Part shown: piece after piece, positions 1,307 through 14,866 of the stretch | Layout of the letters: the number at the start of each line of letters is the position of its first letter | Numbering within the stretch: position 1 is the stretch's first letter | From: a virus | DNA: 25,438 bases | UHGV virus genome: UHGV-0213490 | Direction: 5' to 3' (one strand) | The notes under the pieces: generated by a model | The model's database searches: none | What the model saw: only the letters and a program-made list of their open reading frames with translations | Told to the model about the DNA's origin: nothing | Made by a program: the position numbers and the translations under genes

Positions 1307-3565
1307 TTAAAAATCAACCGGATTCGGGATCAGTTTTTGCCAGATTGCTGAAACGTATTTTGCCTGGTGACGGGCGTCATCCAGTGCATTATGGCGCTCA
1401 CCTTCGAATGGGATAGCAGTTCTGGCATCGAAGTCTATGGCTTTCCCCAGCTCAACGATTGTGCGTACATCGCGATCGTTGTAGTAGCGCCACGGGCAGG
1501 GGATACCCTGTCGTTCGTATGAACGACGTAAAATCACGTTGTCGAAGTTGGCTCCATTCCCCCAGACCTGGACAAAAAATTCACCGGAGTTTTCGTCGAT
1601 AAATTCCCGCAATTGCAGTAGTGCATCATCTAACGGAATTTCATCGGTCAGAAGGGCAGATTGCGCCTCGCGTGATTGCTTGAGCCACCATTTTATGGTG
1701 TCACGATCAATGATTCCGCCAGTAGTTTCCAGATCGATGGTCTTGCTAAATTCCGGCCCCATATCTCCGGTTTGCGGATCGAAAAATATTGCACCTATTG
1801 AGATAATCGGGGCATCAGGATTTTTTCCCATGGTTTCGAGGTCGATCATTAGATGGTCACACGTCCTGCTGGTGGATGTGATTTTGTGATGGCTGTTCAC
1901 CTTAACTGAGTGATCTGCCGCCTCGCCAGTTTCATTATCGCTGGCGTGGTCCTGAGCGCTGCCAGCATTCTCCTTGTGTGGATGTTCAGCGCCTTCCATT
2001 TCCTCCGGATCGTTTTCCTGAACTTCAACCTGATTCTCTTCATCGAATGTTTCCTGGTATGTTGCGTCGCCCATCACCGCGCCACAATCAGGGCAGTTGC
2101 CGCAACCGCTCTGACCGCAGGCGGTGCAGACTTTTTCCGGTTCCTGTTGCGCTACTGGTTCAGGCTGGCTGATATTGACTGCCTGCATAATTTTGTTTAC
2201 TTCGTCAGCGGTAACTTTTACCTGATTAACCGGATCTATCTGTGCCTGAGTATCCAGCGATTGCGTGTCCTGGCGATGTTCAGTTGTATCCGGTTCCATT
2301 GTTTCAGCCGTTGCCTGTTCATCTGCCATTGCGTCAGACGGTTGTGATTTTTCCTCATTATTTTTTTCTTCTTCTGTTTCGCGTTCAGCAGCCAGTTCGC
2401 GGTTAACTTCTTCCAGGATATCTTTTTCCGGTGTATGTCGTGCAGCAGTGAGAGTTTCCTCGGTGGGATGCTCGTGATCAGTCTCCGTTAAGTGGGCGTT
2501 GATATACTCCTGAAGGCGTCCCGGGTAGAGATAAAGTTCAGGGTGAGCACTTCGGATAAGTGCAAAAATAGCTGCACGGGAATAATCCCGAATACCAGTG
2601 ATTGCGCGAAGTGCTGCGGACCATTCTTTGAACGGACTTTCTTTCTTCCGGACGACTTCTTTTGCGCGACGATAAACGCTGCCCGGAATTTCATAAATAT
2701 TAAAATCCATCGGAAGTGTGGCCGCTGCAATCTCCACATCCAGCGTATCGAAGGTGTGTACTAAATTCGGATTGCGATCGGTTTTGTTCCCTCCACCGGC
2801 ATTAGCACCGGAAGCCGTGCGGGTGATACGAGAAACACGATTTCCTTTCATCCACTCGTTTGTCAGCAGACCGCGATCGGTGTAGTCAGCGTTCAGGTAT
2901 GCTTCGATGAAAGAAGTCATCACCCACAGTTCTGAATTTACGGGGGCGGGAAAAACACTGCCAGTATCCCGAACCAGTTTGTGGAGATCGCGAATTTCCA
3001 GTGGATCGAGCAGACTGGTTTTATGCGAAATAGCGAGGGCAGTAACAGTCGGCAGTTCTTCAGCCCGTGCAATGTGTAATGCCTGGAGTTCGTCGCGTGA
3101 AACGTGCGTTACCGGTTTTTCGCTGCCGCGTTGAGCAAGCCAGCGAATGGGTAGTTCCTGACCGGAAACCGGCAGGAGCATGTTCTCCTCAATCTCAGTC
3201 ATGTCTTCGCCGTTGACGTTGGTATTGTCAGTGCTGACTGGTTTGTCCTGAACAGAGGGCGAGGGCGCGATAAGTACCATTGTGATACCATCTTCCCCGC
3301 CTTTTTCGTAACGGTTGCAGAATTCGGTATCAAACACGCCTTCCGGAGGAAGGTCATTCACAACGGGTAAATGGACGCGAACAGGTTTTTTAAAATCCTC
3401 TTCGTCAAATCCGACATCGTCCATTGCGACAACACCGCGTGATATTGCAACCGATAATTTTTTTGCTGTGCGCCAGTAAAAACCGCCTTTAATCCCAAGG
3501 CGTTTTCTGACTTTGTCATTTTTGGCTTCGTAATATAGTGCAATTTCTTCTTTATCAGCGCTCAT
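1307..3565 (-). CDS. Large phage protein with C-terminal DnaQ-like (DEDDh) 3'-5' exonuclease domain
   Basis: 752-aa ORF; C-terminus has Exo I (MIDLETMG), Exo II (WGNGANFD) and Exo III ([13 protein letters not shown]) motifs; internal Cys cluster [16 protein letters not shown]; acidic linker. Confidence 0.8.
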
Positions 3566-10021: not shown

Positions 10022-10387
10022 ATGTCACTGACGAAAAAACAACGCGCAGAACTGCGCATGAAGTTCGGTGGTCGCTGCGCTTATTGCGGCTGCGAACTTG
10101 GCGAAAAGTGGCATGCAGACCATGTAAAACCGGTCATCCGTTTTGATGGAAATATGCTTCACCAGGAACGTGACGATATATCCAACATGGTTCCGGCATG
10201 CCACCCATGCAATCTGCACAAGCATTGCAGTAGTCTGGAAGATTATCGGCGAATTATCAGTGATGGTCGTCGTGAATTCCTTGCGTCCGGGAAAGGCAAA
10301 GCGCTGGTTCGTATGGGATTGGTTGAAATGAAATCTGACCCAGTTGTGTTCTGGTTTGAAAAATATCAAGAAGGGGCTACGGCATGA
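10022..10387 (+). CDS. HNH endonuclease
   Basis: 121-aa ORF with Zn-finger/HNH signature CAYCGC...HADHVKP...N...CHPCNLHKH. Confidence 0.8.
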   Translation: MSLTKKQRAELRMKFGGRCAYCGCELGEKWHADHVKPVIRFDGNMLHQERDDISNMVPACHPCNLHKHCSSLEDYRRIISDGRREFLASGKGKALVRMGLVEMKSDPVVFWFEKYQEGATA

Positions 10388-11199
10388 CCACTTTTACCAA
10401 TAGCAAACTAACAGACGAATACGTTTCAAATGCAACGTTGATTCGGCTCATTCTGTGGGCTGACCAGCACAATAGCCATTATGTTGTAGCGGCTCTGCGC
10501 GAGCTACAGGAGCGCCGCAAGGCTGATAGTGTGCCTGTAGAAATCAACGACGACATGGCTTACGCATTTCACCATGCGCTTTCTGACTCATCGCTTGGCT
10601 CTGATGAAATCGAAGAAATTAAAACCGGGTTGCGTGCTGCCTTTGCCAATGTCACCGTCCAGCCGGTGCTGATAGTGCCAGATGAAATCGAGCCAGACGA
10701 TAGCAATACGTTTGATTATGTTGATGGCTGGAACGCCTGCCGCGCCGCCATGCTTCAGAGTAACCAACCTGTAAGCCAAACTTACAACTTGCCAGAATTA
10801 ATCGAGGGCATGGAAGTTTCCATTGATGTAAGCACTTGTGATGCTGATTTAGGTAATCGCTATTTCGGCACCGTCACCGAGGCGTTAGAACTTGATACTG
10901 CCAAGAATGGCTACATCCTCCTGATTCAGGACGCAGAGCCAAACTTCGATGTAAATGGCAACTCTCCGGTAACTCCGGATGGTTGGATAAGCTGTAGTGA
11001 GCGAATGCCGGAAAAGGGCCAGAACGTGCTTATTTCGGTGAATTTCGATAGCTCTCTGGTTGAACCGCTAATATGCTCCGCACGCTATACCGGAAGCACC
11101 TTTCGGCGCGGAGATGCAACGATTAAGCCGGGTAATGGTATTGAGCAAGCAACTCACTGGATGCCGCTACCGGAACCACCGCAGGAGGTGAATCAATGA
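10384..11199 (+). CDS. DUF551 domain-containing phage protein
   Basis: 271-aa ORF coupled to the HNH gene (ATGA overlap); C-terminal WISCSERMPEKGQNVLISV is typical of DUF551. Confidence 0.65.
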   Translation: MTTFTNSKLTDEYVSNATLIRLILWADQHNSHYVVAALRELQERRKADSVPVEINDDMAYAFHHALSDSSLGSDEIEEIKTGLRAAFANVTVQPVLIVPDEIEPDDSNTFDYVDGWNACRAAMLQSNQPVSQTYNLPELIEGMEVSIDVSTCDADLGNRYFGTVTEALELDTAKNGYILLIQDAEPNFDVNGNSPVTPDGWISCSERMPEKGQNVLISVNFDSSLVEPLICSARYTGSTFRRGDATIKPGNGIEQATHWMPLPEPPQEVNQ

Positions 11200-11279
11200 C
11201 CTGGCCTGAGGCATTTACCACGGTAGGAATTGCGATGGCAGTGGCGATGGTGGTGTATTCGATTTGCCGTTGGGGATAA
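11196..11279 (+). CDS. 27-codon hydrophobic micro-ORF
   Basis: ATG overlaps the DUF551 stop; strong AGGAGG 7 nt upstream; encodes MTWPEAFTTVGIAMAVAMVVYSICRWG (single TM helix); followed by a terminator. Confidence 0.45.
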   Translation: MTWPEAFTTVGIAMAVAMVVYSICRWG

Positions 11280-11289
11280 CAAACAAAAA

Positions 11290-11316
11290 CCCCGGATTGA
11301 TGGTCCGGGGTTTTTG
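11290..11316 (+). terminator. Rho-independent terminator
   Basis: CCCCGGA-ttgatgg-TCCGGGG followed by TTTTT. Confidence 0.75.
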
Positions 11317-11653
11317 AAGGAAACAAAACAGAAACAGCAATTGCCGTTACCTGTTGTTATCATGGCAAGTAAACGTATCTCAGGCGAGCGCATTGCGCCG
11401 TTCTGACGCAGATAAACTAGCCTGGATAGATGGTGCTGGCAATAAAAAATAGCGTTTTCTTATCGGTGTCGGTAAGATTGCTGCGGGTGCTTGAGGCTGT
11501 CTGCCTCGGGCATGCCACTGTAAGGCAGACAGAGAAAAGCCCCAGTTAACATTACGCGTCCTGCAAGACGCTTAACATTAATCTGAGGCCCAATCTATGT
11601 CTCACAAATGTAGGTTAGCCTCTTACGTGCCGAAAGGCAAGGAGAAGCAGGCT

Positions 11654-11809
11654 ATGAAGCAGCAAAAGGCGATGTTAATCGCCCTGATCGTCATCTGTTT
11701 AACCGTCATAGTGACGGCACTGGTAACGAGGAAAGACCTCTGCGAGGTACGAATCCGAACCGGCCAGACGGAGGTTGCTGTCTTCGTGGACTACGAATCT
11801 GAGAAGTAA
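11654..11809 (+). CDS. hok: Hok/Gef-family type I toxin
   Basis: MKQQKAMLIALIVICLTVIVTALVTRKDLCEVRIRTGQTEVAVFVDYESEK: single TM plus conserved CE..R.G..EVA motif; AGGAGA RBS; in-frame upstream ATG at 11597 gives a mok-like extension. Confidence 0.85.
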   Translation: MKQQKAMLIALIVICLTVIVTALVTRKDLCEVRIRTGQTEVAVFVDYESEK

Positions 11810-11881
11810 GAGTGACTAGGCGGGAGAGTAATCTCCCGCCACCTCTGATGTGTCAGGCATCCTCAACGCACCCGCACTTAA

Positions 11882-11902
11882 CCCGCTTCGGCGGGTTTTT
11901 TC
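11882..11902 (+). terminator. Rho-independent terminator of the hok transcript
   Basis: CCCGC-ttcg-GCGGG plus TTTTTT; preceded by a GGCGGGAGAGTAATCTCCCGCC hairpin (11819-11840). Confidence 0.75.
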
Positions 11903-12021
11903 ACGTACTGTGGTTGTGAATACGATTGGTATTAGGCTATGCTAACAACATTAGCCTGACTAATTTTGTATTGACTTGATTTTTTGTTAAAGAACAGGAC
12001 GGAGAAGTAAGGGTACACCCA

Positions 12022-12201
12022 ATGAGCTACGCACTAAAAAAACACCCGCGATTGACTATTCCCCCTCGCGATAAAAGCGTTGTGGCAGCTCCGCGCCCGG
12101 CTATTGATGAAAATTGCACACATCGTGAGCAGGTGAAAAATGCTTTCGATTTCGGTTTTTCTCGTTACGAGAAGGCAATGGAAGAACTTTCAAAAGTGTA
12201 A
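12022..12201 (+). CDS. Candidate antitoxin/partner of the Fic/Doc toxin
   Basis: 59-aa ORF (MSYALKKHPRLTIPPRDKSVV...EKAMEELSKV) ending 10-19 nt before the Doc-like gene; below the ORF-track length cutoff; not recognisably Phd/YefM. Confidence 0.5.
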   Translation: MSYALKKHPRLTIPPRDKSVVAAPRPAIDENCTHREQVKNAFDFGFSRYEKAMEELSKV

Positions 12202-12210
12202 TAATGGGTA

Positions 12211-12705
12211 TTGTGCTCTATGGCTGAGATTGTTGAAGGAGTGCACTATCTTTCGGTTGATGATCTTACTGAAATCAATCGCCTTTTAATTGAGCTTCAA
12301 ACACCAGATGAACCTGTAGGTGTGCTGAGTGTTGATAATTTAAGTTCTTCTCAGGCCCGTCCCAGCATGGTTCGATGGTATGAACAGATCAATGACATGT
12401 TTGTACTGGCATCGGTATTGATTGAAAGTCTGATTCAGAATCATCCGTTTGCTAATGCGAACAAACGAACAGCTATGATGGCTGGTTACGTCTTCTTGTT
12501 GTTGAATGGCTATGAGTTAACAGCACCAGGCGATGAAATCGTGGAAATGGCAGAGGGACTGGCCTGCAAAACCTATACTCGAGAAGATCTCGAGAACTGG
12601 TTGTGTTATTGGTCTCGTGCGTATGACAGCCGGGAATTATGTAAAACAGGCGCAACTATTGTTTTGTATGAAACTATCAAGCTTAAAATAGAACAGCAAA
12701 ACTAA
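12211..12705 (+). CDS. doc: Fic/Doc-family toxin (death-on-curing-like)
   Basis: Doc-type Fic motif HPFANANKRTA; alternative ATG at 12220. Confidence 0.8.
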   Translation: MCSMAEIVEGVHYLSVDDLTEINRLLIELQTPDEPVGVLSVDNLSSSQARPSMVRWYEQINDMFVLASVLIESLIQNHPFANANKRTAMMAGYVFLLLNGYELTAPGDEIVEMAEGLACKTYTREDLENWLCYWSRAYDSRELCKTGATIVLYETIKLKIEQQN

Positions 12706-12720
12706 AGGTGCTTCCAATGA

Positions 12721-12745
12721 AAACCCGCTTCGGCGGGTTTTTTGT
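12721..12745 (+). terminator. Rho-independent terminator (second copy of the hok terminator sequence)
   Basis: AACCCGCTTCGGCGGGTTTTTT, identical over 22 nt to 11880-11901. Confidence 0.75.
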
Positions 12746-12818
12746 TTTACGTATTCTGGTTTACAATCCACAGGCCAGCCTGAACAACTGGCACCTGCTG
12801 CGCCAGCAGAGAAAACCG

Positions 12819-13091
12819 ATGGCGCACAATACCAAACATCACAATTCTGATACCGACCTTGCCAGCAGGCACGGGCGGTGTTCTCATGCATTCAAATATG
12901 ACTGGTACCAGCATGACCCCTGCACTGAAGAACAGGCCGAATGGCTGATTCAGAACTACCGCAGGCGTGGGTACGAGTTTCAGAAAGATCTCAGCTTCGA
13001 TCGTCGTCACTGGATAATCTCCGTCAGGCTCCCTTATTCCGAACGTCCGCCGCGTCCGTCCCGCACATTCCAGCAACGCATCTGGAGGTAA
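12819..13091 (+). CDS. Hypothetical protein
   Basis: 90-codon ORF from ATG 12819 ending 1 nt before the DUF968 gene start; Arg/His-rich. Confidence 0.4.
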   Translation: MAHNTKHHNSDTDLASRHGRCSHAFKYDWYQHDPCTEEQAEWLIQNYRRRGYEFQKDLSFDRRHWIISVRLPYSERPPRPSRTFQQRIWR

Positions 13092-13092
13092 C

Positions 13093-14142
13093 GTGCGGGT
13101 ATTGCTTCGACCTGTTCTGGTACCGGAACTCGGGCTGGTGGTCCTTAAGCCGGGTCGTGAATCCATGCGGGTATTTCATAATCCCCGGGTGCTGGTGGAG
13201 CCGGAACCGAAAAGCATGCGCGGTCTGCCGTCCGGCATTGTCCCTGTCGTTCGCCAGCCGCTGGCGGAGGATAAATCATTACAGCCATTTTTCAGCGATG
13301 AGCGGGTGATTCGTGCTGCCGGCGGCGCTGGTGCACTGTCTGACTGGCTCCTGCGTCATGTTAAATCCTGCCAGTGGCCTCATGGTGACTATCACCACAG
13401 CGAAACCGTCATACATCGTTACGGTACCGGCGCGATGGTGTTGTGCTGGCACTGCGACAACCAGCTGCGTGGCCAGACCTCCGAATCACTCGGGCAGCTT
13501 GCTCAACAAAATCTGGCAACCTGGATAATTGACGCCATCCGTCACGCAATAAATGGCGCGCAGGAGCGGGAGTTATCGCTGGCTGAATTGTACTGCTGGG
13601 CTGCTTTAAATAATGTGGTGGATGCCATAACCGAAAATATGGCGCGTCGAATCCTGAAACGTTCGGGTGAAAAAATCCTTTCCGTATACCGCGAAAGCGA
13701 CATCATACCGGGAGTGCAGACAGCCACCAGCATACTGAAGCAGCGCACAAAAAATATTGCGCTACCGCCTCACGTCCACCAGCAACAGAACTCACCGCAG
13801 GAAAAGGCGGTGGTAAGCATTGCCGTTGATCCGGATTCTCCGGAATCTTTCATGAAGCGCCCTAAACGTCGCCGCTGGGTTAACGAGAAATACACGCGCT
13901 GGGTAAAGATGCAGCCGTGTGCGTGTTGTGGTAAGCCAGCCGACGATCCCCATCACCTGATTGGTCATGGTCAGGGCGGAATGGGAACAAAATCCCACGA
14001 TATTTTCACGCTACCGCTGTGTCGGGAGCATCGCAACGAACTTCATGCGGATCCGCTGGCGTTCGAAGAAAAGCATGGTTCTCAGGTTGATTTAATTTTT
14101 CGTTTTCTTGATCACGCCTTTGCAACCGGTGTGCTTGGGTAA
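13093..14142 (+). CDS. DUF968 domain protein (YdfU-like, nin region)
   Basis: 349-aa ORF with GTG start after GGAGGTAA; C-terminal Cys/His cluster CACCGKPADDPHHLIGHGQGGMGTKSHD...CREHRNELH. Confidence 0.65.
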   Translation: MRVLLRPVLVPELGLVVLKPGRESMRVFHNPRVLVEPEPKSMRGLPSGIVPVVRQPLAEDKSLQPFFSDERVIRAAGGAGALSDWLLRHVKSCQWPHGDYHHSETVIHRYGTGAMVLCWHCDNQLRGQTSESLGQLAQQNLATWIIDAIRHAINGAQERELSLAELYCWAALNNVVDAITENMARRILKRSGEKILSVYRESDIIPGVQTATSILKQRTKNIALPPHVHQQQNSPQEKAVVSIAVDPDSPESFMKRPKRRRWVNEKYTRWVKMQPCACCGKPADDPHHLIGHGQGGMGTKSHDIFTLPLCREHRNELHADPLAFEEKHGSQVDLIFRFLDHAFATGVLG

Positions 14143-14154
14143 AAGGGGGTATTG

Positions 14155-14526
14155 ATGTGTATAGAGTTTGTTTTGCCTTACCCGCCGACGGTGAATACTT
14201 ACTGGCGACGTCGTGGCAGCACATATTTTGTATCAAAAGCCGGTGAGCGTTATCGCCGTGATGTGGCACTTATTGTTCGCCAGCAGCAACTGAAATTAAA
14301 CCTGTCCGGAAGGCTGGCGATAACGGTTATTGCCGAGCCGCCGGATAAGCGTCGTCGTGATCTGGACAATATCCTGAAAGCACCACTGGATGCGCTGACG
14401 CATGCGGGACTGCTTATCGACGACGAGCAGTTTGATGAAATTAATATTGTGCGCGGTCAGCTCGTTCCTGGTGGTCGGCTGGGCGTGAAGATTTGCGAAA
14501 TTAGAGGTGATAGTAATGGGGCGTGA
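14155..14526 (+). CDS. rusA: Holliday-junction resolvase RusA
   Basis: LPYPPTVNTYW...DKRRRDLDNILKAPLDALTHAGLLIDDEQ matches the RusA family signature; AAGGGGG RBS. Confidence 0.85.
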   Translation: MCIEFVLPYPPTVNTYWRRRGSTYFVSKAGERYRRDVALIVRQQQLKLNLSGRLAITVIAEPPDKRRRDLDNILKAPLDALTHAGLLIDDEQFDEINIVRGQLVPGGRLGVKICEIRGDSNGA

Positions 14527-14866
14527 TATGTATGAGGTTTTAGACCGCTGGGGGGCATGGGCTGCAGCAGAAAATAGTGGTGTCGATTGGCAACCGATAG
14601 CAGCGGGCTTCAAGGGGCTTTTACCACGCGGTAAAAAGTCACGTCTCCAGTGTGATGATGATGAGGGGCTCATGATCGATGGGTGCGTAGCTAGATTAAG
14701 AAAGTACAAACCAGAAGAGTATGAGTTAGTTATAGCCCATTTTGTGGTAGGGATTTCATTGCGAGCCATTGCTAAGAAGAGAAAGTGTTCGGATGGGACT
14801 ATCAGGAAAGAGTTGCAAACATCGCTTGGTTTCATTGAAGGCATTGTTTGCACTCTTGCCTGTTAA
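14516..14866 (+). CDS. Q: Late-gene antiterminator Q (QuuD/Q82-like)
   Basis: MGRDMYEVLDRWGAWAA...IAAGFKG...CDDDEG...C resembles E. coli QuuD-type Q proteins; GAGGTGA RBS; follows rusA as in lambdoid nin-Q order. Confidence 0.8.
   Translation: MGRDMYEVLDRWGAWAAAENSGVDWQPIAAGFKGLLPRGKKSRLQCDDDEGLMIDGCVARLRKYKPEEYELVIAHFVVGISLRAIAKKRKCSDGTIRKELQTSLGFIEGIVCTLAC

Follow-up and report, generated by a model that had tools for sequence, protein, structure and literature searches.

The closest described counterparts of the locus considered here are the morons of lambdoid phages such as HK97 and HK022, extra units that are present in one genome and absent from another, have their own terminator and a deviating G+C content, and carry host-affecting or defence cargo (PMC3594210). 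The locus belongs to the virus genome UHGV-0213490, which was analysed over its whole length of 25,438 nucleotides (hereafter the window) and is a Rac/Qin-like lambdoid prophage. Downstream of its hok/sok locus, a module encoding a death-on-curing (Doc) toxin lies between two identical copies of a predicted transcription terminator, T1 on the left and T2 on the right. Like the lambdoid morons (PMC3594210), the Doc unit would, as far as its sequence indicates, be transcribed independently, presumably from the repressed prophage. It differs from them in that several unrelated morons share one slot and all end in the terminator hairpin of the upstream gene, which forms the mosaic joint, and in that the promoter of the Doc cassette has no consensus match in our scan.

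A second likeness is to the antiviral hotspots of P2 and P4, where a fixed position in a temperate phage, with conserved flanking genes, holds alternative defence or toxin-antitoxin (TA) systems or is empty (PMC9122126). In the present case the phages are of the Rac/Qin-like lambdoid group, the position is between hok and orf88-ydfU-rusA-Q, and the cargo is much smaller (0.7-1.9 kb), each cassette being delimited not just by conserved genes but by a repeat of the terminator hairpin. In the mosaicism attributed to Rad52-like recombinases, temperate phages likewise exchange DNA with defective prophages at short stretches of identity, and Rac and Qin were the prophages studied (PMC3945230); here the patch is about 20-26 bp and is a predicted terminator, at which recombination is presumed. 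The cargo itself resembles phd-doc of phage P1 in having a Doc toxin with the HxFx(D/N)(A/G)NKR motif and a small upstream open reading frame (ORF), in its operon organization and in its residence in a temperate phage, but it shows about 30% local similarity to P1 Doc, its 59-aa partner is unlike Phd/YefM, and it lies in a lambdoid nin-type region and not on a plasmid prophage. Finally, integrons hold arrays of compact, promoter-poor cassettes that end in a hairpin repeat and are gained or lost precisely. This likeness is one of layout only: no IntI is present here, and a 22-nt terminator stands against attC sites of 57-141 nt with R/L boxes. The Doc module is not an integron cassette, its hairpin being a perfect one of 22 nt and the only integrase being that of the prophage (1-1020).

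Our preferred explanation, to which we assign a probability of roughly 0.6, is that the locus is a moron-type cassette hotspot after hok in which the ~20-bp terminator serves as a short-homology recombination joint. In related prophages the slot either is vacant or holds other defence cassettes, each with this hairpin at its end, so that the terminator appears to mark a recurrent gene-swapping joint. Literature searches returned no description of a hok-adjacent slot or of terminator-bounded cassettes, which is not proof of novelty. A recent survey of Hok, which leaves terminators unmentioned, found that hok is not generally enriched within 20 kb of defence systems (10.1101/2025.08.07.668861), and a preprint on the Pas small RNA proved to be unrelated.

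The repeated hairpin and the slot downstream of hok

The initial annotation had pointed to identical 22-bp terminator copies bracketing the Doc module, and this arrangement was confirmed. The 22-mer AACCCGCTTCGGCGGGTTTTTT has two exact copies on the + strand of the window, at 11880-11901 (T1) and 12722-12743 (T2), spaced 842 bp from start to start with 820 bp between them. No further match with up to three mismatches was found in the window, and none in 100 dinucleotide shuffles. A repeat longer than 22 nt is rejected, as there is no exact extension: the 5′ flanks are cactt (T1) and tgaaa (T2), and the first base past the run of six T is C at T1 and G at T2. Both copies fold into a G+C-rich stem of 7-10 bp, formed by CCCGC/GCGGG and lengthened by A-U pairs, with a UUCG loop and a U6 tract, and their fold energies (-12.8 kcal/mol for T1 and -14.9 kcal/mol for T2) were equalled by no shuffle. 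T1, with its 7-bp stem, lies 70 nt past the hok stop codon as the predicted intrinsic terminator with which the hok mRNA would end, and T2, which was also matched by a terminator scan (12719-12742), lies 16 nt past the Doc stop codon as that of the Doc operon. Together with the A run at 12719-12721, T2 makes a bidirectional hairpin, the minus-strand fold having an energy of -12.9 kcal/mol. Each copy shows the G+C-rich stem-loop, the U tract and the position after the end of a transcription unit that characterize intrinsic terminators, and the two are predicted to be copies of one canonical rho-independent terminator.

Within the window, such a repeat far exceeds what chance would give, yet the 20-mer AACCCGCTTCGGCGGGTTTT is a recurrent canonical terminator. 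It occurs in at least 120 IMG/VR contigs, with 89 of its 137 instances in contexts unrelated to hok or Doc, and the consensus of the Pseudomonas small RNA rsmX in Rfam ends in the same hairpin, which is presumably an 'optimal' terminator that has arisen convergently in unrelated genes. Matches of T1 and T2 to the Rfam families rsmX, RydC and istR were below gathering and confined to the terminator, and were discarded; those to rsmX (11814-11901 and 12654-12743) reach 25-32 bits against a gathering threshold of 56 and are caused by the shared CCCGCUUCGGCGGG-U hairpin. Since the hairpin recurs in unrelated genes, the identity of T1 and T2 by itself is weak evidence, and the repeat has to be judged by comparison with relatives.

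Among the relatives, empty sites are common. In phage Evi (L001 among the compared loci) and at least 13 IMG/VR contigs, the hok terminator is followed directly by the sequence that stands after T2 in the window. Homology to Evi and to loci L026, L041, L054 and L046 reaches 11899 and restarts at 12722, leaving a single hairpin in these relatives, and the right flank of the slot (12744-12824, + strand), which directly follows the hok terminator in empty-site relatives, is likewise preceded by a restart at 12722 in L220. When one repeat and the module were removed in silico by joining 11600-11901 to 12744-13050, the product matched Escherichia coli strain bR_120_Kylling (L220) as one contiguous piece with 96.4% identity; the gene order of that strain is hok, one hairpin, an ORF of the 88-aa type, DUF968 and RusA. 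At least 80% of the same query was covered at one place in 2875 of 5426 complete E. coli genomes, a count that may include short inserts, and the Doc cassette itself was found in 125 of the 5426 with 92-99% identity. The interval is thus variable or empty in relatives, as the initial annotation had led one to expect, and repeat-bounded insertions and deletions do occur among them. By its presence or absence at a precise point in close relatives, its own terminator (T2) and its deviating base composition (41-45% G+C in the module versus 50-58% in the flanks), the unit is moron-like.

The sequence to the right of the Doc cassette varies as well. Among Doc carriers, T2 is followed by the orf88-DUF968 type, by DUF1367 types, by an opposite-strand HTH/RelE pair or by others, and every one of these downstream types, of which there are at least six, was also found elsewhere directly after the hok terminator, 90-99% identical over 260-300 nt. 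Prophages that have no DUF968 downstream (L005-L008) also carry Doc cassettes with both hairpins.

Other cargo occupies the same slot between the hok terminator and a second hairpin. Three subtypes of RosmerTA were found there, in L169, in L183 and phage Tritos, and in L018, L187 and L191; the cargo of these related loci, which lie outside the window, consists of an RmrT toxin and an RmrA protein with HTH and M78 domains (PADLOC RmrT, E=5.7e-93, 4.6e-25 and 7.5e-10; PADLOC RmrA, E=8e-201, 6e-105 and 5.5e-102; Pfam HTH_3 and Peptidase_M78). In addition, the slot holds a pair of HTH and small M78-peptidase genes in L085 and L185, and a gene for a 130-aa lipoprotein in L184 and L221, including E. 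coli TUM1881. The right-hand hairpins of these cargos equal the terminator over 15-19 nt, that of Tritos differing by one loop base. The three RosmerTA cassettes have differing best RmrT models or very unequal matches, and their 3′ flanks are dissimilar, while the hairpin is the same, which argues that hairpin and cargo do not evolve together. A separate observation is that the RosmerTA leaders contain two copies of GGTTGACAAA, ~30-40 nt apart, which are possibly operators for the HTH protein. Of the 5426 complete E. coli genomes, 237 carry the L018-type cassette; the corresponding empty site is the common hokD-terminator-rem junction of the Qin type, seen in thousands of genomes and exemplified by the K-12 derivative DH10B (NZ_CP110018.1 1732587-1732818; H127).

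Whatever the cassette type, the sequences part at the first base past the T run of T1 and become homologous again at the A ahead of the CCCGC in the right hairpin. T-run length follows the downstream and not the upstream sequence, so that the exchange points lie within or to the left of the T tract. The proposal that the module was inserted, or can be exchanged, at the terminator gains support from the empty sites and the other cargo, and recombination itself we infer from the breakpoint positions. To place the slot in a broader sample, 74 hok loci were gathered by protein similarity, without conditioning on the hairpin. T1 stands at the same place in 50 of them, and a second hairpin follows within 2.5 kb in 7 of the 45 T1 loci that have enough downstream sequence.

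Proposed recombination at the hairpin and alternative explanations

The preferred explanation may be set out as follows. T1 would end the hok mRNA, and T2 would end a self-contained operon of the 59-aa ORF and Doc and block read-through into ydfU-rusA-Q. The 842-bp unit, consisting of one hairpin and the operon, would be a moron-type TA cassette, in a hotspot for small TA and defence cassettes directly downstream of hok in Rac/Qin-like lambdoid prophages. The hairpin would be the only sequence that all partners have in common at the joints, and a crossover between the hairpins of two collinear genomes would provide a hok-terminator-cargo-terminator arrangement with a new right arm. Recombination of T1 with T2 would remove the cassette precisely, and an event in the opposite sense, of the Campbell type, would insert a cassette and leave direct repeats. 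Likely catalysts would be short-homology recombinases of co-resident phages, of the Red-beta, RecT or Erf type; we infer both that the terminator is the recombination substrate and which enzymes act on it. Red-beta needs a minimum of 23-27 bp for pairing and RecA one of 31-34 bp, and Rad52-like phage recombinases drive the formation of mosaics at short, diverged homologies, as in lambda with Rac and Qin (PMC3945230). The stretch shared here is 22 nt when exact and up to ~26 nt where the T tract runs on as GTT(TT), and such a patch of 22-26 nt is marginal but plausible as a substrate over evolutionary time. Selection very likely reinforces the pattern, T1 being part of the hok mRNA, and a lysogen-expressed cassette upstream of Q should need a strong terminator.

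Several observations weigh against this explanation. The 22-bp repeat is at or under the minimal pairing length even for Red-beta, and no single-strand annealing gene of the Red-beta, RecT or Erf kind was found among the scanned ORFs of the window, the search yielding only a RecE-like exonuclease fused to a 3′-5′ exonuclease domain (1307-3565) and the prophage integrase (1-1020). No terminator-flanked cargo was found in a donor context outside the hok slot. Nor do the two copies agree everywhere. In L007 an intact T2 accompanies a degenerate T1 (AACCTACTTCGGCGGTTTTTTTT), T2 is substituted in L008 and the Tritos hairpin varies in its loop; on these cases a concerted evolution of T1 and T2 is also rejected. 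As a generic optimum, the hairpin recurs in many unrelated genes, so that part of the identity could be convergent. Where both flanks are shared, ordinary homologous recombination in hok and ydfU suffices for swaps. Lastly, homology to the window ends at the 5′ edge of T1 in 17 of the 74 hok loci, none of which has a hairpin copy within 5 kb (breaks of this kind are listed for L145, L149-L157, L164, L171, L173-L175, L177, L178 and L204, e.g. L153 at 5282). These joints look like a boundary defined by structure or selection rather than by homology. The junction in the 17 loci reads ...CACCCGCGCTT directly followed by TACCATACTG..., after which comes a gene for a signal-peptide protein.

The generic nature of the hairpin and the 17 joints bear on an account by convergence and selection, in which strong terminators of a common type arise repeatedly or are native to the cargo, illegitimate joints form anywhere, and the survivors are those that keep the hok terminator and shield Q. 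That the 20-mer stands in the rsmX consensus and in unrelated viral contexts, at least 89 of them, agrees with this account, and so do the plausible need of a lysogen-expressed cassette for a strong terminator upstream of Q and the Doc operons of other genera, which, at eight loci, end right after the stop codon in similar terminators of the CCCRC-NNNN-GYGGG-T6 type. The latter are the operons' own and differ from T2, and no hok is nearby, from which it follows that the exact identity is specific to the lambdoid slot. A native hairpin on Doc cassettes elsewhere is accordingly not borne out in these eight loci, which are uninformative on the donor. Convergence fits poorly with at least five unrelated cargos that share 15-19 nt of hairpin with 0-1 differences, when Doc homologues elsewhere differ in both stem and loop, with joints that are nucleotide-identical across all cassette types, and with at least six downstream types that stand behind both the hok and the Doc terminator at the same joint base. 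We regard it as unlikely, with some weight left to it.

The extent of the shared flanks bears on another account, according to which one ancestral duplication of the hairpin was followed by homologous exchange in long flanks (hok to the left, orf88/ydfU or the cassette to the right), with the repeats as passive markers. With the Doc, Tritos-type and L169-type RosmerTA cassettes, both flanks match those of the window over hundreds of bp, so flank recombination is sufficient for swapping Doc and RosmerTA cassettes, and part of the swapping between like flanks could indeed proceed in this way. It also agrees with this account that the L018-type RosmerTA was seen only in the hok slot in E. coli (237 genomes), none being found outside it in the sampled rows. 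Left unexplained are the unrelated cargos placed exactly between two hairpins and the joining of the Doc terminator to at least six unrelated right arms that have only the hairpin in common. As an account of the whole pattern, flank exchange seems improbable to us.

The layout of the slot, finally, recalls an array ([hok-hairpin][cargo-hairpin]) and might be read, by analogy with attC or with elements directed to REP hairpins and terminators, as the work of an enzyme for which the hairpin is a structure- or site-specific insertion site, and which captures or excises cargo and duplicates the hairpin. This could be a nuclease or recombinase acting in trans, possibly a function of the neighbouring HNH, DUF968 or RusA genes. 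The 19-22-bp direct duplication at each insert and the joints at both hairpin edges, some of them without homology, would suit such an enzyme, and nuclease genes are nearby (HNH at 10022-10387, DUF968 with a weak HNH-like match, and RusA). Against it, no cargo contains a recombinase or transposase, the hairpin is far shorter than attC and has none of its boxes, the Doc cassettes of L005-L008 carry both hairpins without DUF968 downstream, and the window's only integrase is an ordinary prophage integrase at its far end. This possibility is a slender one in our estimation; if true, it would mean a terminator-based cassette system, integron-attC-like, for small defence and toxin cassettes. An ordinary transposable element or insertion sequence (IS) was also considered and dropped, as there is no transposase and the duplication is 22 bp; terminal inverted repeats of the module were not reported beyond the hairpins themselves.

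The Doc cassette and the prophage surroundings

The cargo between T1 and T2 encodes only the 59-aa ORF and Doc. The toxin, of 161 aa (12220-12705, + strand), belongs to the Doc family (TIGR01550 DOC_P1, 126 bits versus a cutoff of 38.65; Pfam Fic, 45.8 versus 24) and has the active-site motif of that family, its HPFANANKR aligning with HIFNDANKR of P1 Doc (3k33) and with HCFYNANKR (9vzc). The 59-aa ORF (12022-12201, + strand), a candidate Doc antitoxin, has no match to a Pfam, NCBIfam or PADLOC family and none to Phd/YefM. It is kept directly upstream of Doc homologues, with 64-76% amino acid identity, at eight loci in Serratia, Providencia, Morganella, Rosenbergiella and Kluyvera. Since it is conserved beside Doc in eight loci of five other genera, it is taken to be a real partner gene, and it is probably the Doc antitoxin, a candidate for an unclassified type.

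The 120-nt leader of the cassette (11902-12021, + strand) is the presumed promoter region, and the cassette promoter would lie within it. A consensus scan of the + strand from T1 to the 59-aa ORF found no consensus sigma-70 promoter; the leader holds a weak -35-like TTGTGA (11914-11919) and a -10-like TATGCT (11938-11943). An unrelated alternative leader of 120 nt stands at the same position in L010, L106 and L161. As a side observation, a -35-like element, GGTT(G/T)(A/T)NA or GGTTKWSA, occurs 9-22 nt past the hairpin in 6 of 16 distinct junction types, with 0.3 expected from shuffles (window 11910-11919 and 12762-12771; L003 1935-1945; the leaders of L018, L169 and L183). As the six cases are not independent, comprising two related flank types and three RosmerTA leaders, nothing is built on this element.

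The left part of the window encodes the integrase, the RecE-like exonuclease, DicB, YdaS/YdaT, DUF977 and Ea22, and to the left of T1 lie the HNH gene, a DUF551 gene and the hok/sok locus. The latter shows the expected arrangement of a Hok/Gef ORF overlapped by mok, with the sok antisense/leader region upstream. Sok (11485-11659, + strand) was identified with Rfam RF01794 (118.1 bits versus a gathering threshold of 59, E=8.7e-28), and the mok/hok ORF (11597-11809, + strand; hok proper from the ATG at 11654) with Pfam HOK_GEF (79.8 bits); its homologues in related phages are annotated hokD/mokW. The RecE-like protein, of 752 aa (1307-3565, - strand), combines an Exonuc_VIII domain of the RecE type with a C-terminal Rv2179c-like 3′-5′ exoribonuclease domain, and no recT-like gene was seen adjoining it.

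A second variable slot lies at 11283-11476, between a small conserved block (~11196-11282) and the sok/hok module, which starts at 11477. Here it is ~190 nt long and opens with a perfect 13-bp bidirectional terminator hairpin (11284-11316); its flanks are only ~30 nt apart in L054 and L018, and L005 has a different insert of ~190 nt with a small ORF in this slot upstream of sok/hok. In L007 (1489-2651, E. coli 2014C-3655), the hok leader/sok region is interrupted by an IS3 element, which separates the counterpart of window positions 11477-11619 from that of 11617 onward.

To the right of the cassette slot, an 88-aa ORF (12825-13091, + strand) ends 1 nt ahead of the start of ydfU at 13093. It matches a 92-aa hypothetical ORF of PPompW-type phages (blastn, L002 and L004), has counterparts of 90-92 aa in PPompW-type and other prophages, and shows no family match in Pfam and NCBIfam profile searches. 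Its identification as rem was rejected, rem being a separate insert of ~420 bp past the hok terminator in L002 and L004; that insert has no second hairpin. The YdfU (DUF968) gene (13093-14142, + strand; Pfam DUF968, 244.8 bits) is followed by rusA (14152-14526, Pfam RusA) and Q (14507-14866, Pfam Phage_antitermQ), which form a conserved right-hand context.

Significance of the slot

How morons and defence cassettes enter temperate phages and spread among them is an old question, the choice being between homologous exchange at short conserved patches and random illegitimate joining followed by selection. The slot downstream of hok offers a compact and common natural test case for this question, with one 20-bp hairpin at every joint. 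Among complete E. coli genomes it is empty in about half, including the Qin prophage of K-12, and is occupied by the Doc cassette in about 2% and by one RosmerTA type in about 4%. As the same hairpin recurs convergently in unrelated genes, exact terminator repeats call for cautious reading. In practical terms, the slot is a place to look for new small anti-phage and toxin cassettes.

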